This document shows, in pieces, positions 33,296 to 64,000 of a DNA stretch of 64,000 nucleotides. The first letter of the stretch is position 1. Every line of letters begins with the position of its first letter. Both the position numbers and the translations under genes were made by a program. Below the pieces are notes generated by a model that was not told where the DNA came from, searched no databases, and was given only the letters and a program-made list of their open reading frames with translations. The stretch comes from an uncultured Acidobacteriota bacterium (GTDB lineage: Bacteria; Acidobacteriota; Thermoanaerobaculia; UBA5066; Gp7-AA6): NCBI GenBank assembly GCA_963707935.1, contig CAVPRN010000005.1, forward strand, positions 1,426,837 through 1,490,836. Direction: 5' to 3'.

Positions 33296-33952
33296 TCAGA
33301 TCAGTTGGTGCTGGTAGGCGAAGACGACCGCCGCGAGCTTGGTGTGCACGTCGAGCTTGTGCAGGATGTTCTGGATGTGGTTGCGGACCGTCACGGGAGC
33401 GATGAAGAGCTTCTTGGCGATCGCCGGCGTGGACAGCCCCTCGGACAGGTGGCGGAGGATCTCCTTCTCGCGCGAGGTCAGCGAGACCGGCTCCCCCTCC
33501 TTCGTCGTCATCGGCCAGAGGGGCTCGCGGACCCCGGCCTCTTCGGCCAGATGCCTCTCGAGAGTCGAAGGCTTCTCGTCTTCCTTGCGCAGGACGTGAA
33601 CGACGGTCGAGAGCGCCGGGTGGTAGCTCGGAATCGAGAAGAGCGAGACGTCGAACCACTGGACTCCCTTCTTTCCGACCTCGATCGCGAGGGGAAAGCG
33701 GTGAACCGGGTCCTTCGGGGCTTCGCGGGCCTGATGCGCGACCGGACAATTGCGGTAGCAGTAGACATTGCCGTGGGCGTCGCGGCCTCCCAGAACCTCG
33801 TAGCAGTGCTTGCCGAGGACGCTGCGGGCGGGCCGTTGGAGCAGCTCCTCGCAGCGGCGGTTCCAGAGAATGATCCGATCAGCCGCGTCGATCGCAAAAA
33901 CGGCGTCGCCGCTGCGAGCGATGCGATCGAGGGCTTCGGAGGCGAAAGGCAC
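33296..33952 (-). CDS. PAS-domain / LuxR(GerE)-type HTH one-component transcriptional regulator
   Basis: 218 aa. PAS domain with a Cys/His-rich segment: GKHCYEVLGGRDAHGNVYCYRNCPVAH. C-terminal LTSREKEILRHLSEGLSTPAIAKKLFIAPVTVRNHIQNILHKL. Confidence 0.88.
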   Translation of the reverse strand: MPFASEALDRIARSGDAVFAIDAADRIILWNRRCEELLQRPARSVLGKHCYEVLGGRDAHGNVYCYRNCPVAHQAREAPKDPVHRFPLAIEVGKKGVQWFDVSLFSIPSYHPALSTVVHVLRKEDEKPSTLERHLAEEAGVREPLWPMTTKEGEPVSLTSREKEILRHLSEGLSTPAIAKKLFIAPVTVRNHIQNILHKLDVHTKLAAVVFAYQHQLI

Positions 33953-34021
33953 CGGTTTCCCCGTCTACAGCCTAGCAGAGCCGACGGGAGTCGGACAATC
34001 GGGACTCGCGGGGCGACGGAC

Positions 34022-34450
34022 CTACGCGGTCTTTCGCCGTCGCGGGGGCCGAACGACGGTGACCGGCCGGCGCGAGACGTAGACGAGGCGGAGAGCCGTC
34101 CCGCCGAGGACCCATTCGTTCAGGGTGTCCCGCCCCTCGCTGCCGACGACCACCAGATCCACCTTGAGCCGATCGGCCTCCCGGGAGATCGTCTCCGGAA
34201 TCGGAGCTCCCGGGCGCGTCGCGACGAAGTGGAACCGCGCCCGAACCCGTTCCCGGTGGGCGCGTTTCGAGGCGTTCCGGAGAATCTTCTCAGCGCGACC
34301 CCGAAGGCCGTTCTCCGAAGAATCTCCGACCTTCCGTTCGACCGTCAGCACGATCAACTCGGAGTCGGAATGGCCCGCCGCCAGCCGGGCCGCGAATCGG
34401 ACGGCAGCCGTCCCTCCCCGGGAACCGTCGGTCGCCGCAAGAATCCGCAT
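34022..34450 (-). CDS. universal stress protein (UspA family)
   Basis: 142 aa. MRILAATDGS...DLVVVGSEGR..LGGTALRLVYVSRRPVTVV. Confidence 0.88.
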   Translation of the reverse strand: MRILAATDGSRGGTAAVRFAARLAAGHSDSELIVLTVERKVGDSSENGLRGRAEKILRNASKRAHRERVRARFHFVATRPGAPIPETISREADRLKVDLVVVGSEGRDTLNEWVLGGTALRLVYVSRRPVTVVRPPRRRKTA

Positions 34451-34485
34451 CGAGCCAAGGCTAGCCTGCGCGAGTCTCCCGGAGG

Positions 34486-34501
34486 TGATGTAATCGCATC
34501 A
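34486..34501. promoter_or_regulatory. class A palindrome site (TGATGTAATCGCATCA)
   Basis: Perfect TGATG-N6-CATCA. It lies in the divergent promoter between the USP-(PAS-LuxR) unit and the PNPOx-like operon, 43 and 53 nt from the two ATGs. Confidence 0.6.
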
Positions 34502-34546
34502 AACTTGGGGGCCGCGGGCGGCCCGCGGCCCGGCGAGGGCATCGTC

Positions 34547-34999
34547 ATGCTCGGAATGCTCTCTTCCGACGAGATCGATCGGCTCCTTCGAGCCGAGGTG
34601 ACCGGCCGCATCGGCTGCCACGCGGACGGTCGGACCTACGTCGTGCCGGTTACATTCGCCTACCAGGCCGGGATCATCTACGGACAGGCGACCGAGGGTC
34701 TGAAGATCCGGATGATGCGCAAGAATCCGCGGGTGTGCTTCGAAGTGGACCGGATCCGGGACCTCGCCCACTGGGAGAGCGTGATCGCCTGGGGGATGTT
34801 CGAGGAGCTGCGGGGCCGTCCGGCCGTCGAGGCGATGGATCTGCTGATCGATCGGCTCGCCTCGCTCGTGACGAGCCGGACGGGCCCGTCGGTGGAGCGG
34901 AAGGGGGATCGGCCTCCCGACGGTGACGCCGACGGCCGGAAGCTCGTCACGTACCGGATCGTGCTGACCGAGAAGACGGGCCGGTTCGAGAGGAGTTGA
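34547..34999 (+). CDS. pyridoxamine 5'-phosphate oxidase-family (FMN-binding split barrel) protein
   Basis: 150 aa. IDRLLRAEVTGRIGCHADGRTYVVPVTFAY..IYGQATEGLKIRMMRKNPRVCFEVD. Confidence 0.75.
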   Translation: MLGMLSSDEIDRLLRAEVTGRIGCHADGRTYVVPVTFAYQAGIIYGQATEGLKIRMMRKNPRVCFEVDRIRDLAHWESVIAWGMFEELRGRPAVEAMDLLIDRLASLVTSRTGPSVERKGDRPPDGDADGRKLVTYRIVLTEKTGRFERS

Positions 35000-35016
35000 A
35001 GGAGACCCGACTCCGG

Positions 35017-35454
35017 ATGACTCTCGACAGGCGGACCCTGCTCGCCGCTCTCGGTGTCTGGCTCATGCTTCTGGGCTTCGCCTTCATCAACGCCCTGTTT
35101 CGCGAGAGAGTTCTCGAGCCGAATCTCGGAGCCGAACCGGCTCACATCCTCGCGACGACGACCCTCGCCGGCGCGATCCTGGTGGCGGCCATCCTCTGGA
35201 TCGGAACGAGCCCGCGCAACTACGCGTGGCGGGAGCTCCTGACGATCGGACTCCTCTGGTTCTGCCTGACCGTCGTGTTCGAATTCTCCGTCGGAAGGTT
35301 CGTCCTCGGACGATCCTGGGCAGAGTTCCTCGCCGACTACGATCTCACGCGGGGCCGGCTCTTCCTCCTCGTCCTTCTGGCGGAGCTCGCCGGACCCCCG
35401 ATCGCCGGACTCGGCCGGCGGATGGCGCGCAAGAGCGAAGGTGGTTCTCGCTGA
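35017..35454 (+). CDS. hypothetical membrane protein (4 TM)
   Basis: GAAGGAG lies upstream of the ATG at 35017. It is hydrophobic throughout and I recognised no domain. Confidence 0.5.
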   Translation: MTLDRRTLLAALGVWLMLLGFAFINALFRERVLEPNLGAEPAHILATTTLAGAILVAAILWIGTSPRNYAWRELLTIGLLWFCLTVVFEFSVGRFVLGRSWAEFLADYDLTRGRLFLLVLLAELAGPPIAGLGRRMARKSEGGSR

Positions 35455-35509
35455 ATTGCGCCGAACGGCTCGCTCGAGTCGGCGATCCGGGAGAACCGTT
35501 TCCCCTGCG

Positions 35510-36160
35510 ATGAACCCACGCGACGGGAGATTCGGGCGGCCGCCGGCGTCCCGCCGAGAGCCACTCGTCCTGGTCCTGCTGCTCGCCGCGGCGGTCGTCG
35601 TCGCCGGCATCTCTCCGAAGGACCGTCGGACCTGGCTTCTGGAGATTGCGCCCGTCCTGCTCGGGGTCCCGATCCTGATCGCGACCTTCCGTCGCTTTCG
35701 CTTGACGCCGCTCGCGTATCGCCTGATCTTCCTGCACGCTCTCCTGCTCGTCGTGGGCGCCCACTACACCTTCTCGCAGGTGCCCGCCGGGATCTGGCTG
35801 CGAGACACTCTGGGCTTCGCCCGAAACCACTACGACCGGGTCGTGCACTTCGCCGGCGGTTTTTCCTCCGCCATCCTCGGTCGAGAGATCCTGCGACGTC
35901 GGACGCCGCTCCCCGAGGGAGGCTGGCTCTTCTTTCTCGTGGCCATCAGCTGCCTGGGCGGGAGCGCGTTCTACGAGCTTCTGGAGTGGAGCGCCGCCCG
36001 GGCGATCGGCGCGGAGGCGACGACTTTCCTCGCCACCCAGGGAGACGTCTGGGACACCCAGTGGGACATGTTCCTCGGCCTGGCCGGCTCCGTCCTCGCG
36101 CAGCTTCTGCTCGCCCGCCGACACGCTCGGGAGCTCGATGCGCTCACTTCCGGAGCTTGA
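35510..36160 (+). CDS. DUF2238/YjdF-like inner membrane protein
   Basis: 216 aa. YDRVVHFAGGFS..FYELLEWSAA..QGDVWDTQWDMFLGLAG. Confidence 0.6.
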   Translation: MNPRDGRFGRPPASRREPLVLVLLLAAAVVVAGISPKDRRTWLLEIAPVLLGVPILIATFRRFRLTPLAYRLIFLHALLLVVGAHYTFSQVPAGIWLRDTLGFARNHYDRVVHFAGGFSSAILGREILRRRTPLPEGGWLFFLVAISCLGGSAFYELLEWSAARAIGAEATTFLATQGDVWDTQWDMFLGLAGSVLAQLLLARRHARELDALTSGA

Positions 36161-36190
36161 CTCTTCCCGACGGAGAAGATTCCCCGGCAG

Positions 36191-37531
36191 TCAGACCCCG
36201 GAAGGGAACGTCTCCGGCACCTCTCCGCGCTCCCATTCGGCACTTCTCTCCAGCGGCTCGACGGCCCGCGTCCGGTCGATGTGGAGAAGGGCGTCGAACT
36301 GGTCGGGAAGGCAGGCATAGAAGTAGTGACTCGCGCGCTCCGTCTCCGGAGCGTAGATCACGCCGATCGCTCTTTCGAGAAGGGGCTCTCGCAGCTCCGG
36401 AATCGGATTCTGCGCGCCGAGGGGGAGAAAGAAACGTTGGATCCCCGCCGCGTGAAAGAGAGCCTCGTAGCTCCCCGGAAGCGAGGGACGTACGCGCTTG
36501 CGTTCGGCCGGTCCATGCCAGTCGGAGGCCGCGGTGACCGTCCCCTCGTGCGTCGTGAACCCGACGAGCACCGCCTGGGATCCGTGCTGCTCGCGGACGA
36601 GCTGGCCGACGTTCCACTCGCCGCCGTGCCCCATCTCGGTCGCGCGCGCGTCGCCCAGGTGCGAGTTGTGTTCCCAGAGGACGATCTTGGCCGGCGAGCC
36701 CCCGGCGGACAGGAAGCCGAGCAGCGCCTCGAGCGTCTCCGCCATGTGCCGGTCGCGGAGATTCCATGAGAGCGCCCGCGTGCGGAACATGGAGCGGTAG
36801 TACTCCTCGGCGTTCTTGACGAGGCGGGCATTCTGCTCCGCGAAGAAGAAGTCGTCGGGCGCCAGCCGCCCGTCGCGGCGCGCGTACTCCGCCGCCGAGC
36901 GCCGAAGCTCCAGGAGCTGTCCGACCGCCTCGTCCTCGCACGACCGGGCAATCCCCAGCTCGGCGGCGTATCCGTAGGTCTGCGGATCGCCTCCCACGTG
37001 ATCGAAGCAGGAGTAGCGGCGGCGCGCACGCCGCGCGCCCTCCGGGTCCACCTTGTCGAGGTAGGAGAGGACCGCCCCCATCGAGGCGTGGAGGCTGTAG
37101 AGATCGAGCCCGTAGAAGCCGACCTTGCGATCCCCGGCCGCCGCGCGATCGTTGTGCGCCCGCAACCACCCGATGAAGTCGAGGACGTCGGCGTTGCGCC
37201 ACATCCAGGCTGGAAACCGTTCGAAGCCGGAGAGGGCGTCCACGCTGTCGGGATCCCGGCCCTCGGCACGCACGTAGCGGTTGACGCGATAGGCATCCGG
37301 CCAGTCCGCCTCGACCGCGACGGCCGAAAAGCCCTTTTCGGCGATGAGGCGCTTGGTGATGACCGCCCGCTCCCGATAGAACTCGTGGGTTCCGTGAGAG
37401 GCTTCGCCGATCAGGACCAGTCGGCAGTCTCCAATCCGTTCCAGAAGCGGATCGTAGTCTTCCAGAGCGCCGGAGAGAGGGCGCGCGACCTCGCGGACCT
37501 TCCGGGCCGCCGCGCTTTCGGTGAGAGTCAT
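36191..37531 (-). CDS. erythromycin esterase-family protein
   Basis: 446 aa. LVLIGEASHGTHEFYRERAVITKRLI..FSAVAVEADWPDA..MWRN..FYGLDLYS..VLWEHNSHLGDAR. Confidence 0.85.
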   Translation of the reverse strand: MTLTESAAARKVREVARPLSGALEDYDPLLERIGDCRLVLIGEASHGTHEFYRERAVITKRLIAEKGFSAVAVEADWPDAYRVNRYVRAEGRDPDSVDALSGFERFPAWMWRNADVLDFIGWLRAHNDRAAAGDRKVGFYGLDLYSLHASMGAVLSYLDKVDPEGARRARRRYSCFDHVGGDPQTYGYAAELGIARSCEDEAVGQLLELRRSAAEYARRDGRLAPDDFFFAEQNARLVKNAEEYYRSMFRTRALSWNLRDRHMAETLEALLGFLSAGGSPAKIVLWEHNSHLGDARATEMGHGGEWNVGQLVREQHGSQAVLVGFTTHEGTVTAASDWHGPAERKRVRPSLPGSYEALFHAAGIQRFFLPLGAQNPIPELREPLLERAIGVIYAPETERASHYFYACLPDQFDALLHIDRTRAVEPLERSAEWERGEVPETFPSGV

Positions 37532-38931
37532 GCGCGACCTCCGTGTGGACGCGCCTCCGTCTCGCGGGCGGCAGCGCTTTCGAGCAGCTCCCGGACCTCT
37601 TCGTCCCTTGTCTGTTCGAAGTTCTCGTAGAAGCGGCCGACCGCGAGAAAGGGCTCCGGTGTCGCCGCGCAGATCACGTCGTCCACGAGCGGCCGGAGCT
37701 CCCGGCAGGTCCTCGCGGGGGCCACGGGAACGGCCACCACGACGGCACGAGGGCCGAGCCTCCGGACCGCCTCGACCGCGGCGCGCATGGAGGATCCGGT
37801 GGCCAGGCCGTCGTCGACGAGGATCACCGTCCGTCCTCGCAGATCGAGAGGCGCCCGGTCCCCCCGGTAGGAATGCTCGCGCCGGCGCAGTTCTCGCTCC
37901 TCTTCGCGCGTGATCGCGTCGATCCGTTCACGGGGAATCGCGAACTGCCGCACGAGATCCGCGTTGACGACCCGAACGCCGCCGGAAGCGATGGCGCCCA
38001 GGGCCAGCTCTTCCTGACCCGGCACGCCGAGCTTGCGCACCAGGAAGACGTCGAGCGGAGCACCCAGAGACCGGGCGACCTCGTCGGCGACCGGGACTCC
38101 CCCGCGCGGCAGCCCGAGGACCAGAACGTCCTCCCGCCCGCCATAGGCCCGAAGACTGTCGGCGAGCGCCCGGCCGGCGTCCCGGCGGTCGTGAAACGGG
38201 AGCCGGACCTCGTCACGGCCCGGCGTCTCCCAAGGCTGCCCGGTGGACGCCTTCTCCGGCCGCGTGAAGTGTCGCTCGAACCAGGCCGTCGCGAGACGCG
38301 AAACTTCCTCCAGCGCGCCCGACTCCTCGAAGAGATGGGTCGCTCCCGGCACGAGGATCAGCTGCTTCTCGCAGCGGAGCGCCTCGAGCGCCGCGCGGTT
38401 CAGCTGCAACACCTCCTCGTCGCGCCCCCCCACGATCAAGAGCGTCGCCGCGGCAACGTGCGACAGGGCCGAACCGGCCAGATCCGGCCGCCCGCCCCGT
38501 GAGACGACCGCCCGGATCGCGTCGCCGAAACCCGCCGCCGCGACGAGCGCGGCGGCCGCCCCCGTGCTCGCGCCGAAATACCCGATCGGCAGTCCCCGAA
38601 CGGCCGCCTGTTCCGACGCCCAGATCGTCGCCGCGATCAGACGCTCAGCGAGAAACTCGATGTCGAATCGAAGATGAGCGCGCTGCCGGTCCGCGGCCTC
38701 TTCCCCCGGAGTCAGCAGGTCGAAGAGAAGCGTTCCGAGCCCCGATCTCTGCAACGCTGCGGCCACTCGCCGGTTGCGCGGGCTCAGACGGCTGCTTCCG
38801 CTCCCATGCGCGAAGAGAACCAGACCCTGCGCGCCCGGCGGCAGGAAAAGCTCTCCGTCGAGGTAGACCGAGCCTGCCGGTATCGAAACGGCCTTGCTGA
38901 CGGACTCGCCGAACCGAAGGGATGTATCCAT
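37528..38931 (-). CDS. fusion protein: alpha/beta (dienelactone-type) hydrolase plus phosphoribosyltransferase
   Basis: N-terminal domain: LVLFAHGSGSSRLSPRN..GYFGASTGAAAAL..LIVGGRDE..PGATHLFEE. C-terminal domain: VLGLPRGGVPVA..VRKLGVPGQEELALGAI..VILVDDGLATGSSM. The stop overlaps the esterase ATG. An alternative ATG lies at 38967. Confidence 0.85.
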   Translation of the reverse strand: MDTSLRFGESVSKAVSIPAGSVYLDGELFLPPGAQGLVLFAHGSGSSRLSPRNRRVAAALQRSGLGTLLFDLLTPGEEAADRQRAHLRFDIEFLAERLIAATIWASEQAAVRGLPIGYFGASTGAAAALVAAAGFGDAIRAVVSRGGRPDLAGSALSHVAAATLLIVGGRDEEVLQLNRAALEALRCEKQLILVPGATHLFEESGALEEVSRLATAWFERHFTRPEKASTGQPWETPGRDEVRLPFHDRRDAGRALADSLRAYGGREDVLVLGLPRGGVPVADEVARSLGAPLDVFLVRKLGVPGQEELALGAIASGGVRVVNADLVRQFAIPRERIDAITREEERELRRREHSYRGDRAPLDLRGRTVILVDDGLATGSSMRAAVEAVRRLGPRAVVVAVPVAPARTCRELRPLVDDVICAATPEPFLAVGRFYENFEQTRDEEVRELLESAAARETEARPHGGRA

Positions 38932-38979
38932 GGCCAGCCCCCCCGGTAGCAGTCTTACGCTGCGCATCGGGTGCGGCCA

Positions 38980-38995
38980 TGATCCATTTTCATCA
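38980..38995. promoter_or_regulatory. class A palindrome site (TGATCCATTTTCATCA)
   Basis: Exact TGAT-N8-ATCA. Its centre is about 56 nt upstream of the ATG at 38931. Confidence 0.55.
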
Positions 38996-39021
38996 GGAGC
39001 GTGGCAGTCCGGCGCGCGGCC

Positions 39022-41596
39022 TCATCGAGGGGAGAGCGCACCAGAGGGCGCGGCCCGCGCCCTTGCGTGGATCACCTTGAAGGCCTCGAACCACAGGATG
39101 CTGAAGACTCCCGCCGCGAGACAGATCACGAGGTCGTCGCCGTGCAGTCTGGAAAAGCCGAAGAGGTCTCGAAGGACGGGGACCCGGAGGACCAGGGCGA
39201 GAAAGAACACCGCCCCTCCCAGGACCCAGGCGAGAGCGGTGTTTCGCGATCGGAAAGAATCGACGATCGTGCGCGTCCAGGAGCGATTCGCCAGAATCAG
39301 GGCGAGGTTCGCGATGATCAAGGTCGTGAAAGCGAGCGCCCGCGCGTCCTCCGCCCCCTGACCGCGCGTGACGGCAAACGCGAAAACCCCGAAGACGACG
39401 GCGAGAACCCCGGCTCCCTGAAGAAGGGCGATTCCCACCGCGCGCCGCGAGAAGAGGGGCTCGTCCGGCCGCCGAGGCGGCCGACGCATGAGGTCGACTT
39501 CCTCCCCCTCGGCCTCGAAGACCAGGGAGCAGGCGGGGTCGATGATCAGCTCGAGGAAGACGATGTGCACGGGAAGCAGGACGAGCGGCCATCCGAAGAG
39601 CACCGGCAGCAAAGTCATTCCCGCGATCGGAACATGGATGGCGAGAATGTAGGCGACGGCCTTGCGAAGATTGTCGAAGATCCGTCGACCCATGCGGACC
39701 GACTCGACGATCGAGGAGAAATCGTCGTCGAGGAGCACGAGGTCGGCGGCCTCGCGGGCGACGTCGGTCCCCCGCTCTCCCATGGCGATCCCCATGTCCG
39801 CGGCTTTCAGGGCGGGAGCGTCGTTGACGCCGTCTCCCGTCATCGCGACGATCTCGCCGTTCGCTTTCAAGGCGTTGACGAGGCGCAGCTTCTGCTGCGG
39901 GACGACCCGGGCGAAGACGTCTACGGACGCGACCCGGCGGCGCAGGGTCTCCTCGTCCATGCGTTCCAGCTCCGGGCCCGTCAGGACGCGGATCTCGCGG
40001 GAATCGTCGAGCCCGATCTGCCGGGCGATGCTCGCGGCGGTGGTCGGATAATCCCCCGTGATCATCACGATCCGGATCCCGGCGGCGTGACATTCCCGGA
40101 TCGCCGCGGGCACCGTCGGGCGCACCGGGTCGGCCAGGGCGATCAGACCCACGAAGCGAAAATCGAAGCCGCGCGGGTCGGCCGGCAGCGCCGAGGGCTC
40201 GTGCGTCGCGCGGGCGACTCCCAGCACCCGCAGACCGTCCCCGGCCAACCGACCCACGCGGTCGAGCAGCCGCGGAGGATTCCGACGGCGATAGGCGGCA
40301 AAGTGTGGCGATCGCCTCCGGGGCCCCCTTGGCCGCGACGACGCCGATTGTCTCCGCCGGAGGACGCCAGACATGCGTCGTGGCCAGCAACCGCGGCGAG
40401 ATCGGGTATTCCCGCACGGGCTCCCAGTCGTCGTGGATCCCGCCGAAGGGCCCGAGAGCTCGAGTGCCAAGGTCACGAATGGCGCGCTCCATCGGATCGA
40501 ACGCGTCCCTTCGGCTCGCGAGGACGCCGGACTCGACGAGCTCCCGGAGCTCCTCGCGAAGAGGCCCGTCCTCCAGCGGAATCTCGTCGAGGCCGGGTCC
40601 CGCCGAGAGCTTGCGCACCGACATGCGGTTCTGGGTGAGCGTGCCCGTCTTGTCGACACAGAGCACGGTCGCCGCGCCCAGGCTTTCGATCGCGGCGAGG
40701 CGACGGGTCAGGACGTTCTTGCGAGAGATCCGCCAGGCGCCGAGCGCCAGGAAGATGGTCAGGACGACGGGAAATTCTTCGGGCAGGATCGCCATGGCCA
40801 ACGCGAGACCTGCCAGAAAACCGTCGAGCCAGTTCCCCCGCATCAGCCCGTGCACAACGACCAGGGTCAGGCAGAGGGCAACCGCACCGACGGCGACCCG
40901 GCGCACGAGGCGGCCGGTCTCCCTCTGGAGACGCGTCTTCTCGGGAACGATCGTCTGGAGGGACTGCCCGATCCGGCCGATCTCGGTGCGCGCTCCGGTT
41001 GCGTCCGCGCGGGCGACGGCGCCTCCGGAGACCAGGAGAGTTCCCGAATAGACGAACGGCTGGTCGTCTCCCCCCGGCCTGCCCCGCGACGGCGCGCCGG
41101 GCCACACCCCTAACTTCCGCACCGGCACGGACTCTCCCGTCAGAAGCGATTCGTCGGCCGAGAGACCTGAGGCCTCCAGAAGCGTCGCGTCCGCAGGAAC
41201 TCGGTCTCCTTCCGAGAGCAGCAGGATGTCCCCACGGACGACCTCCCGCCCCGCGATCCGCCGGCGCCGGCCGCCGCGACGCACGAGCGCACGGGGGCTC
41301 GCGAGCTCCCGCAGAGCTGCGAGCGCCCGCTCGGTCTTGCGGTTCTGATAGAGGGAGATTCCGATCACCACGAGGACCGAGAAGAGAAGCACCAACGCCT
41401 CGCGCAAGTCGCCGAGCAGAAGGTAGACCGTCGACGCGGCGAGGAGCAGCAGGATCATCGGCTCGCGCACGATGTCCCAGGCGATCGCGAGGAGGCTCCC
41501 CCGGCGCGCCGCGGGAAGCTCGTTGTAGCCCTCCTGCCGCAGGCGAGCGGCGGCTTCCTCTTCGGATAACCCCTCGAGGCTCTTCGAGTCGATCAT
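39022..41596 (-). pseudogene. cation-translocating P-type ATPase (type II-like); one frame break near 40290
   Basis: TGES, CVDKTGTLT (the phosphorylation site), MITGDYP and TGDGVNDAPAL. There are about 10 TM segments. The length is 2575 nt. Confidence 0.9.
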
Positions 41597-41706
41597 TCGT
41601 CTCTCTCGACGGAGCCGGAATCCGCCCGGCGTCTCGACCGGCATTCTCACCAGTTCCCGAGGTCTCGATCGCGCTCGGACCAGCGGGGAAAACCGAGGAC
41701 CCGTCG

Positions 41707-53527: not shown

Positions 53528-53579
53528 CGACGCGCAGCTCCGGCGCGTGTCATTGTGGCCATGTTCTGGGAGGCCGGCC

Positions 53580-54077: not shown

Positions 54078-54086
54078 GAGGCAACC

Positions 54087-56089: not shown

Positions 56090-57235
56090 ATGGAGACACA
56101 GGAGGCGCGAGCCGCGCGGGCGTTTGTGCGAGGGGCCCGGCTGCCTGCGAGGCGGCCCGTTGACCACGGCGCGGGAACGCCCGAGCAGAACGCGTCAGTC
56201 TCGGACATTCACCGCCGCCTTTGGGCGATCGTTCTGGCGGGTGGAGAGGGGAAGCGTCTGCGTCCGCTCGTGCGGCACGTGCACGGCGACGAGCGTCCGA
56301 AGCAGTTCGCGACGCTCATCGGGACGCGCTCCTTGCTCCGCCAAACGCTCGATCGGGCAGCCCTCGCCGTGCCGCGCGATCATCTGGTCGTGATCGCGTC
56401 TCGCTCGCATCGCAGGTATGTCGACGAGGAATTCGCGGGCTCCCCGGCGCCGCGCGTTCTGGTCCAGCCGGCCGATCGGGGAACGGCCGCCGGCATCCTC
56501 TACCCCGCCCACTGGATCCGGGCGCGTCACCCCGAAGCGATCGTCGCCGTGCTTCCCGCCGACCACTTCATCGCGCGGGAATCGGCTTTCATGAATCATG
56601 TCGCCGCAGTCGCCGAGTGGGCGAGTTCCCATGCGGATTCGATCGTGCTCCTCGCCGCCCGACCGACGCGCGCGGAGACCGAGTATGGCTGGATCGAGCC
56701 CGCCGAGACCATCGCATCCATTCCGTCCGGGACAATCCGAAGAGTCTGGAGCTTTCGAGAAAAACCGTCCCCCGAAGAGGCCCGGAGCTGCTTTCAGCGG
56801 GGTTGCCTCTGGAATACCTTCATCATGATCGCCAGCGTGTCCGCGCTCACCGACGCGTGTCGGGTCGCGCTTCCGCAACTGCATTCGGGACTGGGCTCCG
56901 CCGTGAGATTCGGACGCGACGACGCGGGCGCCATCGAGAGCGCTTATGCGGAGGCGCCCGCAGCCGACTTCTCGCGGTCGATCCTCACCCATTGCCCCTC
57001 GTCTCTGGCGGTTTCCGAGCTGCCCGCCGTCGGCTGGAGCGACTGGGGAACCTCCGAGCGCGTGATGCGGAGCTTGAAGGAGGCCGGGCTCGAGCCGTCG
57101 TGGCTGCGGCGCCCGCTTCCGACCGAACCCCCCGCAGGGAGGCACGAGGTTCGAGATGGAGGCCGGAGTCCGGACGGACGGTTCGCCTACTTGACGAGTA
57201 GCACCGGGCATCGCGCGAGCAGCCCCACCTTGTAG
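56090..57235 (+). CDS. sugar-phosphate nucleotidyltransferase (mannose-1-phosphate guanylyltransferase-like)
   Basis: LWAIVLAGGEGKRLRPL..ERPKQF..VLPADHFI..EYGWIE..FREKP. Both the start and the 3' end (which overlaps the convergent USP) are uncertain. Confidence 0.7.
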   Translation: METQEARAARAFVRGARLPARRPVDHGAGTPEQNASVSDIHRRLWAIVLAGGEGKRLRPLVRHVHGDERPKQFATLIGTRSLLRQTLDRAALAVPRDHLVVIASRSHRRYVDEEFAGSPAPRVLVQPADRGTAAGILYPAHWIRARHPEAIVAVLPADHFIARESAFMNHVAAVAEWASSHADSIVLLAARPTRAETEYGWIEPAETIASIPSGTIRRVWSFREKPSPEEARSCFQRGCLWNTFIMIASVSALTDACRVALPQLHSGLGSAVRFGRDDAGAIESAYAEAPAADFSRSILTHCPSSLAVSELPAVGWSDWGTSERVMRSLKEAGLEPSWLRRPLPTEPPAGRHEVRDGGRSPDGRFAYLTSSTGHRASSPTL

Positions 57236-57603
57236 CTGATCGTTCCCCAGGCCTCGCCGCGAAGACGCGGCAGCTTGTGCGAGCTCATCACGATCAGGTC
57301 GATCCGATTGCCCTCCGCGTAGCGCAGGATCTCGTCCACGCGGCGCCCGTAGACCAGTTCCGCGCGGGCCCGCGCTCCCTTCCTCCGGAGCTCGTCCACC
57401 GACCCTTCCAGCTTCTGCCGCGCGCTCTTCTCGAGCTTGCGGTAAAAGGCGGCGAAAGCGCCCGGCGCGCCGGCGTCGATCCGCTCGATGACGTGCAACA
57501 GCGTCGTTTCCCCCTTCGCGGAGGCGGCCAGACGCACGGCGACTCCCGCCGCGCGGCGGCTTCGGGGGGTGAAGTCCGTCGGAACGAGGACGCGGCGGAA
57601 CAT
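57187..57603 (-). CDS. universal stress protein
   Basis: 138 aa. MFRRVLVPTDFTPRS...DLIVMSSHKLPRLRGEAWGTISYKVGLLARCPVLLV. Confidence 0.9.
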   Translation of the reverse strand: MFRRVLVPTDFTPRSRRAAGVAVRLAASAKGETTLLHVIERIDAGAPGAFAAFYRKLEKSARQKLEGSVDELRRKGARARAELVYGRRVDEILRYAEGNRIDLIVMSSHKLPRLRGEAWGTISYKVGLLARCPVLLVK

Positions 57604-58125
57604 CACTTCTCCGCGCGGTGGGACCGGATGTACTCCTGCGCGAAGGCGAGCAGGTTCGGGCTCTTGAGCCCGATGCGCCGGGCTTCCTCCTCCGCCTTCT
57701 CCTCGGTCCAGCCGTCCACGAGAACGCGCCGGATCATCCAGAAGGCTCCGACGCGATTCCCGGAGGCGCAGTGGACGAAGAGGGGGAAGACCCCCGGATC
57801 GGCCGTGGCCGCGAGGAAGGCGTCCGCCTGCTCGACTTTCGGATCCGCGCCCGAGACCGGGATGCTCACGAATCGGAGCCCGAGCTTCCGGACCGCCGCG
57901 GACTCGGCCTCGAGATCCTGCTCCGAGGGCGGACGCAAGTCGATCACGGTCCGAATCCCCTCCTCGCGCAGGCTCGTGAGCTGCGCCTCCGTCGGCTGGC
58001 CCCCCGTGCAGACCCGCTCGTCGACACGCACGAAGTGATCGATCTCCTCGACCGGTCTCGCGATGCCGACCGAGGCCGCGAAGAGCGCCGCGACCGCGAC
58101 ACGCCGCGAACCGTGTGCGCGCCAT
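57603..58125 (-). pseudogene. secreted Cys-based phosphatase-like protein (DUF442/PTP-loop HCxxGxR); frame break just after the start codon
   Basis: MARTRFAA | VAVAALFAASVGIARPVEEIDHFVRVDERVCTGGQPT...FVHCASGNRVGAFW. The length is 523 nt. Confidence 0.6.
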
Positions 58126-58127
58126 CC

Positions 58128-58574
58128 CTAACCCCTCTCCAGGTAGTCGCGGACGAAATCCGCTTCCGTGAGGATCCCGACCAGGTGCATTCCCTCGACC
58201 ACCGGCAGGCACCCGATCTTGTTCTCGAGGAGGAGCGCGGCGGCTTCGGCGAGCCGCGCTTCCGGCTCGACGGTTTCCGGCTCGATCGTCATGATCTCCC
58301 GGACCTTGCGCCCGCGCAGCAGGTCCCGTTCGACGCTCATCGGCAACTCGTCCATCCGGCCGAGAACGGATCTCGCAAGGTCCCGATGGGAAACGAGCCC
58401 GACGAGGTCTCCCTCGCGATCCACGATCGGCACGTGGCGCACCCGCCGAGCGTCCATCAGATCCTCGAGAGCGACCAGGTTGTCCCCCGGCCCGAGCGTG
58501 AAGACCTTCTCGGTCATCAAGTCCCGCACCAGGCGTTCGCGTTGCCGGGCGAGCGGCCTCTCCTTGGCAGCCAT
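58128..58574 (-). CDS. CBS-domain pair protein
   Basis: 148 aa. LMTEKVFTLGP..VRHVPIVDREGDLVGLVSHRDL..IMTIEPETVEP..IGCLPVVEGMHLVGILTEADF. Confidence 0.88.
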   Translation of the reverse strand: MAAKERPLARQRERLVRDLMTEKVFTLGPGDNLVALEDLMDARRVRHVPIVDREGDLVGLVSHRDLARSVLGRMDELPMSVERDLLRGRKVREIMTIEPETVEPEARLAEAAALLLENKIGCLPVVEGMHLVGILTEADFVRDYLERG

Positions 58575-58629: not shown

Positions 58630-58645
58630 TGGTGCGTTCGCATCA
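58630..58645. promoter_or_regulatory. class A palindrome site, degenerate (TGGTGCGTTCGCATCA)
   Basis: One mismatch. Its centre is about 63 nt upstream of the CBS ATG at 58574. It is divergent from the BON gene. Confidence 0.4.
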
Positions 58646-58764: not shown

Positions 58765-59265
58765 ATGCGAGCCTCAAGGCCCTTTCCGAATTCGATGAGG
58801 GGACTCATGGGCGAACGAAAGGGCGATCGGGAGACTCGGCAGAAGATCCTTCGCGAGCTCGAGCTCGGAGGCCTGAAGGGTCTTCGGGTCGGAGTTCACG
58901 CGGGCCATGTGACGCTGCGCGGCACGGTGGACAGCTACGCCAAGCAGCTCGCGGCGCGCGCCGCCGCGCTCCGGGGAGCGGGAACGCCGGAGCTCGACGA
59001 CAACGTGCAGGTGCGCCTGCCCGGGAGCTCGCGCCGCTCCGATCGGGAGCTCGCCGCGGCGGTCGGGCGCGCGCTCGAGTTCGACGAGTTCGTGCCGGAC
59101 CGGCGGATCCGACTGCGCGTCTTCCACGGAAAGGTCACACTCGAGGGGGAAGTCGATTCCTCCCGCGAGAGGGAGGACGCCGCGCGCGTCGCGCGGCACG
59201 TGGCGGGCGTCACCGCGGTCGCGAACCTCATCCGCGTGCGGACCGCCACGGAGCCGCCCCGCTAG
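58765..59265 (+). CDS. BON-domain protein (two BON repeats)
   Basis: LRVGVHAGHVTLRGTVDSYAKQLAA.. and RIRLRVFHGKVTLEGEVDSSREREDAARVARHVAGVTAVANLI. The start is ambiguous (58765, 58795 or 58807). Confidence 0.75.
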   Translation: MRASRPFPNSMRGLMGERKGDRETRQKILRELELGGLKGLRVGVHAGHVTLRGTVDSYAKQLAARAAALRGAGTPELDDNVQVRLPGSSRRSDRELAAAVGRALEFDEFVPDRRIRLRVFHGKVTLEGEVDSSREREDAARVARHVAGVTAVANLIRVRTATEPPR

Positions 59266-59290: not shown

Positions 59291-60922
59291 CTACGAGCGG
59301 AAGGCGATCTCGCCGTCGTCGCCGAGGTCGAATCGCGAGGCGAGCGGGTCCTTCGGAAGCCCCGGCATCCGGAGGATCTCCCCGGTGATCGGGATCACGA
59401 AGCCGGCGCCCGCCGCGAGCTGGATCTCCCGCACCGTCACGAGAAAGTCCTTCGGGCGGCCGAGCAGCGACGGATTGTCCGAAAGGGACTGCTGCGTCTT
59501 CGCGATGCAGACGGGAAGGCCTCCGTAGCCGAGCTTCTCGAGTTGCGCCACGTCCCGCTTCGCGCGGGGCGCGTAGTCGACTTCCTCGGCGCCGTACATT
59601 TCCCTGGCGACCGTGCGGATCTTCTCCTCGATCGGCGCCGACCAGTCGTAGAGGGGCCGGAAGGTCCCGGGCCGGCGCGACGCCATCGCGCGCACGAGCT
59701 CCGCCAGAGCGACGCAGCCGGCGCCCCCCTTCCGAGAAGGGCTTGGCCACGACCGCCTCGATGCCGTGGGACGCGCACAGGCGCCGCACCGCCTCGACCT
59801 CCGCCGACGTGTCGGTCGGGAAATGGTTGATGGCCACGACGCAGGGCTGCTCGAACTTGCGGATGTTCTCGACGTGCTTCTCGAGGTTCTCGAGCCCCTT
59901 CTCGAGCGCCGGCACGTCGGGCTCCTGGATTCGCGCGAGCGGCTTGCCGCCGTGCATCTTGAGGGCGCGCAACGGTCGCGACGAGAACCGTCCCGCTCGG
60001 CGCGAAGCCGCCGTATCGGCAGTTGATGTCGAAGAACTTCTCGGCGCCGAGCTCGAAGGCGAAGCCCGCCTCGGTCACGACGACGTCGGCCGTCGCGAGA
60101 GCGGCTCGGGTGGCGGCGATCGAGTTGGTGCCGTGCGCGATGTTGGCGAACGGTCCGCCGTGGACGAAGGCGGGCACGCCCTCGGTCGTCTGCACGAGGT
60201 TCGGCTTGATCGCGTCGCGCAGGAGCGCCGCCATGGCGCCGACGGCCTGGAGGTCGGAGGCGGTCACCGGCGTTCCGTTCGAGCGATAGCCCGACGACGA
60301 TTCGCGCCAGGCGTTCCTTCAGGTCCCGGACGCCGGTGGCGAGGCAGAGGATGGCCATCACCTCGCTCGCCGCGGTGATGTCGAAGCCCGTCTCGCGCGG
60401 GACGCCTTCGCGGTGCCCGCCGAGGCCGATGACGATGTCGCGCAGCGCGCGGTCGTTCATGTCCATCACACGCCGCCACGGCACGCGGCGCGAGTCGATC
60501 CCGAGCGCGTTGCCGTGATGCAGGTGGTTGTCGACCAGCGCGGCCAGCAGGTTGTGGGCGCAGGAGACGGCGTGGATGTCGCCGGTGAAGTGGAGGTTGA
60601 TGTCGTCGGAGGGAACGACCTGGGAGGCGCCGCCGCCGGTGCCGCCGCCCTTCATGCCGAGGTACGGCCCGAGCGACGGCTCGCGCAGCGCCACGGCCGC
60701 GCGCACACCGATCTTCGTGAGCCCCTGCGCGAGGCCGATCGAGGTCGTGGTCTTGCCTTCGCCGGCCGGTGTGGGCGTGATCGCCGAGACGAGGACGAGC
60801 GAGCCGCGCGCCGGCTTCCCGTCGAGCGCTCCGTTTCGGAGCTTGGCCTTGTAGGGCCCGTAGAGCTCGAGCGTTTCCGGCGCGAGGTCGAGCGAGCGGG
60901 CGACTTCCTCGATCGGTTTCAT
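59291..60922 (-). pseudogene. fhs: formate--tetrahydrofolate ligase; 3 frame breaks (about 60290, 59985 and 59735)
   Basis: N-terminal: ITPTPAGEGKTTTSIGL..LREPSLGPYLGMKGGGTGGG. Middle, in two other frames: [15 protein letters not shown].. and ..[20 protein letters not shown]-terminal: [30 protein letters not shown]. Confidence 0.92.
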
Positions 60923-60979
60923 GCGTGCGGACTCTAGCAGGGCGCCGGAGAACGAGAGAGCGCGCCGGAGGCGCCCGGG

Positions 60980-61945
60980 TCACACGGCGACGGGCGTGAC
61001 GGCTTCCGCCAGGCGCAGGGCGTCTTCCCGGCGGCAGAGCTCTGTCCCCGGGTTCATGACGGCCGCGGCGGCGGCGGCCACGCCGAATCGGACCGCGTCG
61101 GGCACCGGGCGGCCCGAGGCGAGCGAGAGGACGATTCCGGCGACCAGGCTGTCGCCCGCGCCGACGCTCGACGCCACCGAAACGAGGGGAGCGGCCAGCC
61201 GCTCCTGGCCCTGGCGCGACGTCCAGAGGGCGCCGCCCGCGCCGAGCGAGAGCACGAGGATCTCGCAGCATCCCGACTCGACGGCCTGCCGCGCCCGCTC
61301 CCGCCACGCCGCTTCGTCGGCTCCCTTCTCGCCGGACCACTCCTGGAATTCCCGGAGGCTCGGCTTCCAGAGGAAGACCCTCTCTTCGAGTGCGCGCGCG
61401 AGGGACGGTCCCGAGGCATCGAGGACGAAGCGCGCGCCGCGCTCTCGCGCGAGCCGAGCGAGGCGCGCGTAGAAGTCCTCGGGTACCGCGGGCGGAAGGC
61501 TGCCGCTTCCGACGAGATAGGCGGGGAACGGATCCAGGCTCGCGAGGCGTTCGAAGCACTCCCTCGACTCGCCCGGGTCGAGCGCCGGCCCCGGCAGCAC
61601 GAAGCGGAACTGCCGTCCGGTCTCCTCCTCGAGCACGTTCCAGTTCTCGCGCGTGAAACCGCGAATGGGGACGGCGATCCTCTCGATCCCCTCCGCGTCG
61701 AGCAGGTCCTCCAGGAGCCGGCCCGCCGGTCCCCCGGAGGGAAAGAGCGCGGTGGCCCGACCGCCCAGCCGTCGGATCGCACGGGCGACGTTGATGCCGC
61801 CTCCGCCCGGCTCATAGCGAGCCGCCCGGCAGCGCAGCTTCCGCTCCGAGACGACGTGGCCGACTCCGGTCGAGACGTCGATCGCCGGGTTCAGCGTGAC
61901 CGTGACGACGGGCGCCGGCGTCGCGGGGCTCCCGTCGAGGGTCAC
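60980..61945 (-). CDS. pfkB: PfkB-family carbohydrate kinase (1-phosphofructokinase / PfkB-like)
   Basis: 321 aa from a GTG that overlaps the upstream stop (GTGA). VVTVTLNPAIDV..PGGGGINVAR..GSGSLP..LGAGGAL..VGAGDSLVAG. Confidence 0.85.
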   Translation of the reverse strand: MTLDGSPATPAPVVTVTLNPAIDVSTGVGHVVSERKLRCRAARYEPGGGGINVARAIRRLGGRATALFPSGGPAGRLLEDLLDAEGIERIAVPIRGFTRENWNVLEEETGRQFRFVLPGPALDPGESRECFERLASLDPFPAYLVGSGSLPPAVPEDFYARLARLARERGARFVLDASGPSLARALEERVFLWKPSLREFQEWSGEKGADEAAWRERARQAVESGCCEILVLSLGAGGALWTSRQGQERLAAPLVSVASSVGAGDSLVAGIVLSLASGRPVPDAVRFGVAAAAAAVMNPGTELCRREDALRLAEAVTPVAV

Positions 61946-62328
61946 GGGCCGGAGGCGCCGCTGTCGAGTCCGTCCACCGTCTCCGGCAGAGCGGCCACGC
62001 GGAACTCCAGGATCGTCTTGCGGCCGCCGCCCGACACGATCTCGAGGGCCGCCTCGGCGCCGGATTCCGTCATCTCGACCCAGACTTGCTGCGGATCCTC
62101 GACGGGATGCTCGAGGTTCGAGTCCGGCCCGCGGCCGAGCAGGATCGAGATGGGACCGCGCGCCGCCGGATCGACGACGATACCCTCGAGCGGCAGGTCT
62201 CTCGCCTCGACCTGCGCGCCGATCCGGGGATCGACGATGCGCACGGTCGAGAGCCAACGGACATGCCGGCGCCCGAAGCCCTCGAAGAACGGCGCCCATT
62301 CCGCTCGCGGGATCTGGCGATTTCGCAT
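61942..62328 (-). CDS. hypothetical protein (128 aa)
   Basis: GGAAGGAGG lies upstream of the ATG at 62328. MRNRQIPRAEWAPFFEGFGRRHVRWLSTVRIVD... I recognised no domain with confidence. Confidence 0.55.
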   Translation of the reverse strand: MRNRQIPRAEWAPFFEGFGRRHVRWLSTVRIVDPRIGAQVEARDLPLEGIVVDPAARGPISILLGRGPDSNLEHPVEDPQQVWVEMTESGAEAALEIVSGGGRKTILEFRVAALPETVDGLDSGASGP

Positions 62329-62356
62329 ACGGACCTCCTTCCGAGACGAGTGCATC

Positions 62357-63082
62357 TCAGGTCGCCGGGGCTGTCTCGATGCTCTGGGATTCGGACCGGG
62401 CGCGCGCGAGCAGCTCGCGCACTTCGGCGTCGCACGTCGGAGTGAAGTCCTCGTAGAACTCGCCGACGGCGCCGAAGGACTCGGGCCGGCTCACGCACAT
62501 GGTCTCGTCGGCGAGCCGCGAGAGCTCTCTGGCGGTCGAAGCCGGCGCCACCGGCACCGCCACGACGATCGCCTCGGGCCGTCGCCCGCGCAGCGCCAGG
62601 ATGGCCGCTTTCAGGGAGGCTCCCGTGGCGGCTCCGTCGTCCACGAGCAGCACGGTCCGCCCGAAGACCTCCGGGGCGGGGCGGTCGCCCCGATAGGCGC
62701 GCTCCCGCCGCTCGAGCTCGCACCGCTCGCGCGCTTCGACCTCGTCGATCTCCTGCGGCGAAACGCCCATCCGCGCGATCAGGTTCCGATCCAGAACGCG
62801 CGCGCCGCCCGCCGTGATGGCGCCCATTGCGAGCTCTTCCCGGCCCGGGACGCCGAGCTTTCGCACGACGAGGACGTCGAGCGGCGCACCGAGCGCGCGG
62901 GCCACTTCGAAGGCCACCGGGACGCCTCCCCGAGGGAGCGCCAGGACGATCCGGCCTTTGCGTCCCGCGTGGTGGGCGAGCTTCTGCGCGAGCAGGCGCC
63001 CGGCGTGACGACGGTCTCGAAACCGCACGGCGGCCTCCTCTTCCAAACGATGCCTCGCGGAGGTCGATGCGCGTTGCGCCAT
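62357..63082 (-). CDS. phosphoribosyltransferase
   Basis: 241 aa. VLALPRGGVPVA..VRKLGVPGREELAMGAI..VLLVDDGAATGASL. It is a paralog of the C-terminal half of the gene at 37528..38931. Confidence 0.88.
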   Translation of the reverse strand: MAQRASTSARHRLEEEAAVRFRDRRHAGRLLAQKLAHHAGRKGRIVLALPRGGVPVAFEVARALGAPLDVLVVRKLGVPGREELAMGAITAGGARVLDRNLIARMGVSPQEIDEVEARERCELERRERAYRGDRPAPEVFGRTVLLVDDGAATGASLKAAILALRGRRPEAIVVAVPVAPASTARELSRLADETMCVSRPESFGAVGEFYEDFTPTCDAEVRELLARARSESQSIETAPAT

Positions 63083-63098
63083 TTCTCCTCCCGGCCGC

Positions 63099-64000
63099 CT
63101 ACTTTCTCCGCCGCAACGTGGAGACGACGAGCACCGGACGCCGGCTGACCGCGAGCAGACGCCGCGTCACGCTGCCCAGCGCCCACTCTTCCATGGCACC
63201 CCTTCCCTGCCGTCCGACGGCGAGCAGGTCCGCCCGACGGCGGGCGGCCCGCGCGGCGAGCGAGACGGCGACAGGCTCGGTCCTCCTCGGCTCGACGAGC
63301 TGCAGGCTCGCCCGCATCCCCCCGGCGCGGGCGGCGCGCTCCGCGACGGCGAGGGCCTTGCGAAGAGACCGTCGCTCGCCCGCCGCGAGTGCGTCGTAGG
63401 GCATGAGAGCGAGGATCGCCGACGAGAAGCCGAGCGCCAGGTCGCGCCGCAGCGTGCCGACGGTCGCGACCTCGAGCTCTCCGCGAGAGCGGCGGGCCAG
63501 ACGCGCGGCCACGCGGATCGCGGCGGCGGAAGCCCTCGAGCCGTCCGTGGCCGCCAGGATGCGAAGCGGGCCTCCGGCGGGGCGCGTGAAGGCCGGGACG
63601 ACGAGCACGGGTCGCCTCGCCGTGTGAATCAATCGCCGGGCCACGCTGCCAAGCAGCGCCCGGCCCGCCGCCCCCCGCCCGTGGGTGCCGACGACGATCA
63701 GGTCGGCTCCGAGCGAGGCGGCGGCGCGCTCGATCGCGCGCGCGACGGGCTCGACCCGGTGGGCCTCGACGTAACGGCGCCGGGCCGTCACGCCGAAGCG
63801 CGCCGCCTCCTTCGCGCCGCCGTCGAGGGCCTGGTCGGCCCAACGTCGATACTCCTCGGCCATGGTACGCCGGGCGAGGGGCGAGAGCCGCGGCGCTTCA
63901 AGGAGAGACGCCGGCGCATCGCCGACGACGAGAAGGTCGAGCCGCGCGCGGGAGACAGAAGCCAGCCAGGCGGCGCACCGCACGGCCACTTCGGCCTGGC
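63099..64000 (-). CDS. tandem universal stress protein; the 5' end lies beyond the right edge
   Basis: Two USP repeats: ..LIVVGTHGRGAAGRALLGSVARRLIHTARRPVLVV and LRILAATDGS..LLAVGRQGRGAMEEWALGSVTRRLLAVSRRPVLVV. The reading frame is open to the window end. Confidence 0.85.
   Translation of the reverse strand, partial: QAEVAVRCAAWLASVSRARLDLLVVGDAPASLLEAPRLSPLARRTMAEEYRRWADQALDGGAKEAARFGVTARRRYVEAHRVEPVARAIERAAASLGADLIVVGTHGRGAAGRALLGSVARRLIHTARRPVLVVPAFTRPAGGPLRILAATDGSRASAAAIRVAARLARRSRGELEVATVGTLRRDLALGFSSAILALMPYDALAAGERRSLRKALAVAERAARAGGMRASLQLVEPRRTEPVAVSLAARAARRRADLLAVGRQGRGAMEEWALGSVTRRLLAVSRRPVLVVSTLRRRK

Follow-up and report, generated by a model that had tools for sequence, protein, structure and literature searches.

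Regulons that gather universal stress proteins (USPs) with low-oxygen functions are the closest described counterparts of the system treated here, which lies in a stretch of 64,000 nucleotides from an acidobacterial contig (CAVPRN010000005.1; the whole stretch is called the window below) and is composed of a repeated palindrome, TGATGC-N4-GCATCA, and its candidate binding protein, a regulator of 218 amino acids (aa) with a PAS domain and a LuxR/GerE DNA-binding domain. One of these regulons is the DosR regulon of mycobacteria, which in Mycobacterium smegmatis includes a hydrogenase. In M. tuberculosis, the genes Rv2028c (a USP), Rv2029c (PfkB), Rv2030c and hspX form an operon, and Rv2030c carries a phosphoribosyltransferase (PRT) domain together with an erythromycin-esterase domain (PMC4410610). 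A DosR-like gene set under another regulator is already published outside the actinobacteria, for the lxa locus of Burkholderia cenocepacia, a low-oxygen regulon with an FNR-like TGA-N6-TCA motif at 17 intergenic points, whose authors list its overlaps with the DosR regulon (PMC3721108).

The combination of PAS and LuxR domains is found in more than 6000 proteins (FG214 preprint, bioRxiv 10.64898/2026.03.15.711900), and the inputs that have been characterised are light (EL222), a quorum signal (VqmA) and the redox state of haem (FG214), while Streptomyces members control antibiotic clusters. In the literature, no description was found of a PAS-LuxR subtype with three cysteines and one histidine (Cys3His), of the palindromic operator, of a stress regulon in Thermoanaerobaculia or of USPs from this class.

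A palindrome at promoters of stress and anaerobic genes

An earlier note on this DNA, made from the sequence alone, had claimed that the stress gene families of the window are linked by the palindrome TGATG-N6-CATCA. The palindrome is real, intergenic and different from the DosR box, although its form is better described as TGATGC-N4-GCATCA. The literal TGATG-N6-CATCA has two exact copies in the window, at 15248 and 34486 (0.01 expected), and nine when up to one mismatch is allowed, and a weight matrix made from relatives only finds 11 sites, against 0.2 expected. Ten of these fall in the roughly 8% of the window called non-coding by a codon-usage model, and the eleventh, at 53512, is located between two genes. 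A larger survey covered the window and 61 loci fetched from genome assemblies (1.04 Mb, with the expectation taken from shuffles), and here TGATGC-N4-GCATCA was observed 56 times exactly (0 expected), 121 times with one mismatch (1.0 expected) and 84 times with two mismatches (20.8 expected). The 177 exact and one-mismatch sites lie nearly all in 47 related loci of Thermoanaerobaculia, which were retrieved via their PAS-LuxR gene.

The palindrome keeps a fixed distance to a -10-like element. A NANNNT hexamer starts 22-23 nucleotides (nt) past the motif in 72 of the 127 oriented site-to-gene pairs, over a background of about 3 per offset, and the more restrictive TANNNT accounts for 26 cases at those two offsets and occurs almost nowhere else, while the stretch expected to hold a -35 hexamer is not conserved. 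With a standard -10 at positions -12 to -7, the motif is predicted to occupy positions from about -50 to about -35 and to be centred near -42, a layout that points to a class II activator-dependent promoter in which an operator at about -41.5 would replace the -35 element.

The genes behind the sites belong to recurrent families. Counted over the related loci, sites precede the USP to PAS-LuxR operon (36), a second PAS-LuxR paralogue (30), proteins like the USP at 49575 of the window (21), a Cys-rich small protein (20, the fourth by count), DUF5335 (13) and BON proteins (13). Additional targets are the divergent Hsp20/phosphorylase pair, an alpha/beta hydrolase-PRT protein, a ScdA-NnrS protein and a protein of the PNPOx fold, and tandem USP, CBS, GGDEF and dual-specificity (DSP) phosphatase genes also bear sites. 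When the genes beside sites that did not match window proteins were counted, they included pyruvate:ferredoxin oxidoreductase (PFOR; 14), a GNAT protein with ADP-forming acyl-CoA synthetase (10), enoyl-CoA hydratase (9), a radical-SAM-like protein (8), a hemerythrin-like protein (5, a weak Pfam match) and FeoB (4), with ferritin-like proteins, OsmC and multihaem cytochromes among the other flanking genes. This content fits electron-acceptor limitation or nitrosative stress, and would correspond to an anaerobic or redox survival programme, because it joins PFOR, acyl-CoA synthetase (fermentative ATP), glycogen breakdown, hydrogenase and ferrous-iron uptake to the repair of nitric oxide (NO) damage (ScdA-NnrS, and Hcp in Chloroflexota), chaperones and USPs. 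It likewise suggests a role in hypoxia or dormancy.

The palindrome is probably the operator of a dimeric activator, most likely the PAS-LuxR protein encoded at 33296-33952, which would drive this stress and anaerobic regulon. In the mechanism that we propose, O2, NO or the redox state would be read by a PAS cofactor held on Cys-x14-Cys-x3-Cys plus His, and the active form of the regulator would form a dimer and occupy the palindrome, some 42 bp before the transcription start and in place of the -35 element, and recruit RNA polymerase. At least ten promoters of the window would be driven in this way, for four USPs, four CBS-pair proteins, two BON proteins, Hsp20, two alpha-glucan phosphorylases, the PRT/erythromycin-esterase pair, GGDEF, dodecin, the Cys-rich small proteins, the leader gene of the NiFe hydrogenase and the radical-SAM-like protein, and the regulator would also activate its own USP-led operon.

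The PAS-LuxR regulator and its cysteines

The regulator had been overlooked in the earlier note, even though it is the first gene of the region which that note described (33296-64000). Its gene (33296-33952, minus strand) encodes a one-component protein in which a PAS domain at the N-terminus is joined to a GerE/LuxR domain at the C-terminus (Pfam GerE 4e-17), and is the second of an operon led by a USP gene (34022-34450, minus strand; Pfam Usp 1.6e-19). Upstream of this operon lies the site TGATGTAATCGCATCA (34486-34501; weight-matrix score 26.3), the sole perfect TGATG-N6-CATCA copy in 33296-64000, with a -10-like TAGCCT 22 nt off toward the USP gene. The operon is apparently autoregulated, and sites, often in tandem, are found at the promoters of the PAS-LuxR family itself in nearly all Thermoanaerobaculia loci.

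In many Thermoanaerobaculia (loci L010-L028, at about 10650-10810 in locus coordinates), a second PAS-LuxR paralogue with 52-61% identity directly follows the first. Two sites, 20 bp apart from centre to centre, precede this paralogue, and the paralogues may differ slightly in the half-sites they prefer, to judge from symmetric variants such as TGATCC...GGATCA.

The association of regulator and palindrome extends to a second phylum. Four Chloroflexota loci (L048, L049, L052 and L055) carry divergent PAS-LuxR homologues with the same recognition helix and related tandem sites, which in L048, L049 and L052 lie 60-145 bp from the homologue. In the Anaerolineae loci L049 and L055, where the arrangement was read directly, TGATGCAAATGCACTA or TAATGCATTTGCATCA is followed after 7 nt by a second site and, after a further 22 nt, by TATATT or TATAGT, and downstream of this tandem arrangement come a MerR/HTH_17-HMA gene and Hcp (Prismane). 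The two loci also have in common a 5' leader with a repeated AAAACGCGCA motif (L049 10726-10830, L055 10305-10420). A further sample was anchored on the motif itself, by scanning metagenome contigs for the exact 16-mer; low-GC hits were mostly due to chance, and the 21 loci with a GC content of at least 0.6 were informative. A PAS-LuxR homologue (29-74% identity) lies within about 1 kb of the site in five of these 21 loci, and a CRP/FNR homologue in none of them.

The helix-turn-helix (HTH) is of the NarL/FixJ type, with PDB matches to LiaR/VraR (4e-11) and to the C-terminal domain of DosR (1ZLK, 1.4e-7), and its recognition helix, (T/V)(T/A/V)RNHIQNILHKL, is retained at identities as low as 33%. 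An AlphaFold2 model made from a shallow alignment (pLDDT 64), which was used for architecture only, consists of a PAS-like sheet followed by four helices, and its top Foldseek matches are EL222 and VqmA, with 3CLO also found. The haem protein FG214 was discarded as a relative by its reverse domain order and bis-His ligation, and is an analogue.

The PAS domain contains the pattern C50-x14-C65-x3-C69 plus H119, with the cysteines within KHCYEV and VYCYRNCPV. Among 80 diverse representatives (31-58% identity), the three cysteines are invariant and H119 is conserved in at least 90%; the triad and the histidine are also present in the Chloroflexota homologues, whereas a fourth cysteine, C34, is restricted to Thermoanaerobaculia orthologues. 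The family comprises 75 clusters of 50%-identity representatives at E <= 1e-30 and 1537 at E <= 1e-10, and the source records label it only as 'LuxR/CsgD family regulator'. We infer that the triad, with the histidine, would hold a metal or Fe-S-type cofactor reporting O2, NO or redox state. In EL222, VqmA and the Streptomyces PimM-type proteins, which share with this regulator the two-domain architecture and the size of about 220 aa and which act by signal-dependent dimerisation on palindromic DNA, the regulated functions are light response, quorum sensing or antibiotic clusters, whereas here they would form a stress and anaerobic regulon. The LOV flavin motif GXNCRFLQ, with its adduct-forming cysteine, is not in the regulator sequence, and neither is a bis-His haem pocket; the invariant C-x14-C-x3-C plus His stands instead. 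The staphylococcal NreB/NreC system offers a parallel for a Cys-rich PAS sensor coupled to a GerE-type HTH in an anaerobic response, NreB being a PAS [4Fe-4S] sensor of O2 and NreC a NarL-type regulator. It is, however, a two-component system with a C-x2-C-x11-C-x2-C pattern, in contrast to the single polypeptide with only three invariant cysteines found here, and the pattern of this polypeptide differs both from the four-Cys motif of NreB and from the CXXCH site of haem c.

Sites and genes of the window

The window has a G+C content of about 70%. The earlier note had taken its host to be non-actinobacterial, in agreement with its placement in the Acidobacteriota, class Thermoanaerobaculia: the 47 close relatives of the regulator found by protein search (58-88% identity) all come from metagenome-assembled genomes (MAGs) of this class, many of them long-read 'MFD' MAGs. 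Calls of genes by GC3 or by the longest open reading frame (ORF) were misleading, with many genes switching frame mid-way, and gene models were taken from a codon-usage Viterbi segmentation and Pfam scans (with tblastn in addition) because these mid-gene frame changes defeated naive ORF calling. Frame changes split the large subunit of the NiFe hydrogenase (11077-13524), a P-type ATPase (38993-41983), a SulP transporter (42951-44600), formate-tetrahydrofolate ligase (FTHFS, 59291-60922) and HypF (7615-9766). As the related genomes are long-read MAGs, these split conserved genes are probably assembly indels rather than pseudogenes. Every gene family named in the earlier note (Hsp20, at least four USPs, four CBS pairs and others) was found by Pfam and tblastn, and its nitrous oxide (N2O) and H2 context is borne out by NosZ (26173-28044) and a membrane-bound NiFe hydrogenase (11077-14636, minus strand).

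At the left edge, the site TGATGCAAGCGCCTCA (478-493) lies between an alpha-glucan phosphorylase-like gene (2-409, minus strand) and Hsp20 (548-1045, plus strand; Pfam), a divergent pair that is found with its site also in L001 and L004. The site TGATGCAAGCGAATCA (2128-2143) has a -10 TACAGT 22 nt toward a small membrane-protein gene (start at about 2079), which is followed by one of two Cys-rich paralogues (about 1162-1491, minus strand). The other paralogue (32872-33276, plus strand) is preceded by the site TGATTCGAGTGCATCA (32821-32836) and is apparently leaderless, since no more than about 7 nt separate its -10 from the ATG. Both paralogues have about 130 aa, match no Pfam family and contain the motifs GVFCGGFRG and CCDVETREHCACDGW.

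The hydrogenase (11077-14636, minus strand) is preceded by sites at 15210-15263, the distal one at 15248 (TGATGCCAATTCATCA) and a degenerate proximal one at 15210, an arrangement that recurs in L001. Directly upstream of the hydrogenase small subunit, and nearest to the motif in this operon, is a gene (14691-15221, minus strand) whose product, secreted or anchored in the membrane, has a CCAKFSAKTCCCPC cluster and does not match Pfam. Positions 15615-17402 (plus strand) encode a single 595-aa protein in which ScdA_N (iron-sulfur repair, RIC family) is fused to an NnrS haem-copper membrane domain; this gene adjoins an FAD oxidoreductase and a CRP/FNR-family regulator (17485-19370 for the two), the latter with cNMP-binding and HTH_Crp_2 domains (18684-19370) and in the neighbourhood of the NnrS/ScdA and nos genes. 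A weak site, TGATGAGTTCGGCTCA (20692-20707; weight-matrix score 12.9), lies between a radical-SAM-like gene (19392-20648, minus strand; 420 aa) and a small MerR/HTH_17 gene (20851-21084, plus strand) at the head of the NosZ cluster, and is supported by the fact that a homologous radical-SAM-like 420-aa protein is a target of the motif in eight related loci. The MerR/HTH_17 gene leads a cluster (20851-28044, plus strand) of FeS flavoprotein, Rieske protein, cytochrome b, cytochrome c and NosZ, which may constitute a dedicated electron route to the N2O reductase.

Divergent from the USP-led operon of the regulator, a Pyridox_ox_2 protein of the PNPOx fold (34505-34999, plus strand) is followed by a 152-aa protein without assignment and a DUF2238 membrane protein (34505-36160 for the three, plus strand). 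The PNPOx gene is likewise divergent from the site in L008, L041 and L039, and no clear -10 at the standard spacing was seen on its side of the 34486 site. The site TGATCCATTTTCATCA (38980-38995) has a -10 TAAGAC 22 nt toward a PRT fused to an alpha/beta hydrolase (37528-38967, minus strand), which is located directly upstream of the erythromycin esterase (36191-37531, minus strand) and is kept as a motif target in L024 and L027. The site TGATTCAACCGCATCA (50110-50125) is upstream of a USP (49575-50042, minus strand; Pfam) and a CBS pair (49120-49578, minus strand), and genes for efflux, SulP, MgtC and a type II P-type ATPase (38993-41983, minus strand) continue on the same strand down to 38993. 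A second copy of TGATGCAAGCGAATCA (51431-51446) serves shared divergent promoters, with TAGACT 22 nt toward GGDEF (50311-51399, minus strand) and TATCAT 21 nt toward dodecin (51430-51807, plus strand). The site TAATGCGTTCGGATCA (53512-53527) lies between the second alpha-glucan phosphorylase-like gene (51758-53458, minus strand) and a CBS-BON-CBS operon (53505-55018, plus strand) composed of two CBS pairs (53505-54077 and about 54548-55018) and a BON gene (54087-54551). The site TGGTGCGTTCGCATCA (58630-58645) has a -10-like TGAGAT 22 nt toward the fourth CBS pair (58128-58574), the DSP phosphatase (57603-58031) and a USP (57187-57603; Pfam), all on the minus strand, with a BON gene (58807-59265, plus strand) on the opposite side.

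The last cluster (59291-63998, minus strand) contains a tandem USP (63099-63998; Pfam), a second PRT (62357-63082), DUF5335, PfkB (60980-61945) and FTHFS. It has no site inside the window, and its promoter is probably beyond 64000. DUF5335 precedes PfkB here, and in the related loci the motif stands directly upstream of DUF5335.

Competing explanations and known regulons

Several observations weigh against assigning the palindrome to the PAS-LuxR protein as an activator and sensor. The 47 Thermoanaerobaculia loci were chosen by their regulator gene, so that its presence there carries no weight, and the only information lies in where the sites are. A sub-clade with regulators of about 60% identity (L040, L042, L043) has no strong site directly upstream of the regulator, and a third Thermoanaerobaculia group (L050, L051, L053, L054 and L056; 38-40% identity) has no consistent site nearby, its regulators carrying the same Cys triad and recognition helix. 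The promoters of PNPOx, the phosphorylases and the BON gene at 58807 have no -10 at the canonical spacing. On the sensor side, confidence in the AlphaFold2 model is low (pLDDT 64), and lowest at the Cys loop, and the Cys3His pattern could be a purely structural zinc site. Further, the CRP box TGTGA-N6-TCACA and TGATG-N6-CATCA share one layout, 5-N6-5, and the window encodes a CRP/FNR-family protein (18684-19370), beside NnrS/ScdA and nos genes.

These last points belong to an explanation in which a CRP/FNR-family activator, either this one or one encoded elsewhere, binds the palindrome and the PAS-LuxR genes are mere targets. A centre near -42 is also the classic class II position of CRP/FNR proteins, and the USP and low-oxygen regulons of Pseudomonas and Burkholderia are of the Anr/FNR type (PMC3721108). 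This explanation is nevertheless rather unlikely, in that the core of the motif is TGA-N10-TCA and not the TGA-N6-TCA of the CRP/FNR family (TTGA-N6-TCAA does not occur in the window), the CRP gene lacks a site of its own and is found within 10 kb in only 5 of the 47 related loci, and, near the related sites of Chloroflexota and the motif-anchored metagenome loci, PAS-LuxR homologues are found and CRP/FNR homologues are not. The small MerR/HTH_17 regulator was also considered as the binding protein and rejected, being itself a target and MerR operators being placed between -35 and -10. A role of the PAS-LuxR protein as repressor or dual regulator on the palindrome appears quite improbable: repression is possible for LuxR-type proteins, some sites are very near start codons and some promoters show no recognisable -10 at the standard spacing, but a repressor site would be expected over the -10 or the transcription start and at variable positions, whereas the sharp -10-like peak at 22-23 nt, with no -35 consensus between, is the signature of an activator-dependent class II promoter.

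Since the palindrome is a perfect inverted repeat and able to fold, it might alternatively be an RNA element of 5' leaders (a 6-bp stem with a 4-nt loop) or a dispersed repeat of the REP (repetitive extragenic palindromic) or MITE (miniature inverted-repeat transposable element) kind, without regulatory role. Ten two-mismatch sites are compensatory on both sides of one pair, against about 2-3 estimated by chance. Yet 105 of the 121 single mismatches disrupt a would-be RNA base pair, and the motif lies upstream of the -10 and so is not transcribed from these promoters, which together make such an origin extremely improbable; in addition, the flanks of the sites are not conserved, while the sites precede orthologous genes across genera and phyla. 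The remaining explanation concerns the origin of the gene cluster, which would be a true homologue of the actinobacterial DosR regulon, by shared ancestry or gene transfer, and not a convergent assembly. The adjacency of PRT and erythromycin esterase mirrors the Rv2030c fusion, the USP-PRT-PfkB order mirrors Rv2028c-Rv2030c (PMC4410610), and a USP-first regulator operon and a GerE HTH are shared with Rv3134c-dosR. True homology is, even so, most unlikely, as there is neither a receiver domain nor a DosR box, the HTH is nearer to LiaR/VraR than to DosR, the USP, CBS and Hsp20 proteins resemble those of M. tuberculosis at family level only, and the same families are gathered under FNR-like control in Burkholderia (PMC3721108).

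The two absences had been stated in the earlier note and hold on closer search. Three loose matches to the GGGAC-type DosR box (two mismatches to GGGACT-N2-AGTCCC) occur in the window, all inside genes, against 4.6 expected, and tblastn with CheY, NarL and DosR gives window-wide best E values of 0.1-0.9, so that no receiver domain is detected at BLAST sensitivity. The parallel with the DosR regulon that the note had drawn is retained in the overlap of families, the pairing of PRT with erythromycin esterase and the USP/PRT/PfkB operon, but the similarity is at family level only where it was compared: the tandem USP matches Rv2623 at E = 1.7e-8, a CBS protein matches Rv2626c at 7e-9 (rank 18), and Hsp20 has 35% identity to HspX, with no M. 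tuberculosis Hsp20 in the PDB match list. The parallels for PRT/erythromycin esterase and PfkB are drawn from domain content.

The two systems have in common several USPs (one of them tandem), Hsp20, a CBS pair, PfkB, PRT with erythromycin esterase and a type II P-type ATPase among the targets, a GerE/NarL HTH regulator encoded behind a USP gene and apparently autoregulated, and palindromic operators, often tandem, that overlap the -35 region. They differ in the operator, TGATGC-N4-GCATCA here and TTSGGGACTWWAGTCCCSAA in DosR, and in the input, which is a fused Cys3His PAS domain in the acidobacterial regulator and a receiver phosphorylated by haem-GAF kinases in DosR. The lxa locus is likewise a non-actinobacterial cluster with several USPs, alpha-crystallin, a sulphate transporter, PfkB, a cation ATPase and one repeated intergenic palindrome, although the lxa motif is FNR/Anr-like (TGA-N6-TCA), with a presumed CRP/FNR regulator, and the motif described here has the spacing TGA-N10-TCA and is associated with PAS-LuxR. 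The programme is functionally analogous, and probably not orthologous, to the DosR and the Anr/FNR-type lxa regulons. The convergent or rewired programme proposed in the earlier note agrees with the distinct cis-element and the DosR analogy, with the qualifications that a DosR-like output HTH is present in the region and that the Burkholderia precedent exists; the system looks rewired at its input, and not devoid of a DosR-like output, because a GerE/NarL-type HTH is encoded in the region with PAS replacing the receiver.

More tentatively, and with somewhat less than even confidence, it is conceivable that the Cys3His PAS-LuxR proteins are previously unrecognised direct one-component sensors of O2, NO or redox state (through a metal or Fe-S centre), acting as master activators of an anaerobic-survival or dormancy regulon in uncultured Acidobacteriota and controlling Hcp nitrosative-stress genes in Chloroflexota. 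They would then be a third independent solution, next to those of DosRST and FNR/Anr. An uncharacterised family of PAS sensors, with at least 75 clusters at 50% identity, is recognisable by the invariant Cys triad. For the Thermoanaerobaculia, abundant uncultured bacteria of soils and sediments with N2O reductase and hydrogenases, the outcome is a precisely delimited operator, a candidate sensor-regulator of a size suited to expression, and a list of targets comprising USPs, Hsp20, glycogen phosphorylase, PFOR, acyl-CoA synthetase, hydrogenase and FeoB. With receiver/kinase, FNR-type and PAS-Cys3His, a gene set like that of DosR is met under no fewer than three unrelated input modules, which supports the view that it is a general bacterial kit for low-energy survival and not a mycobacterial speciality.

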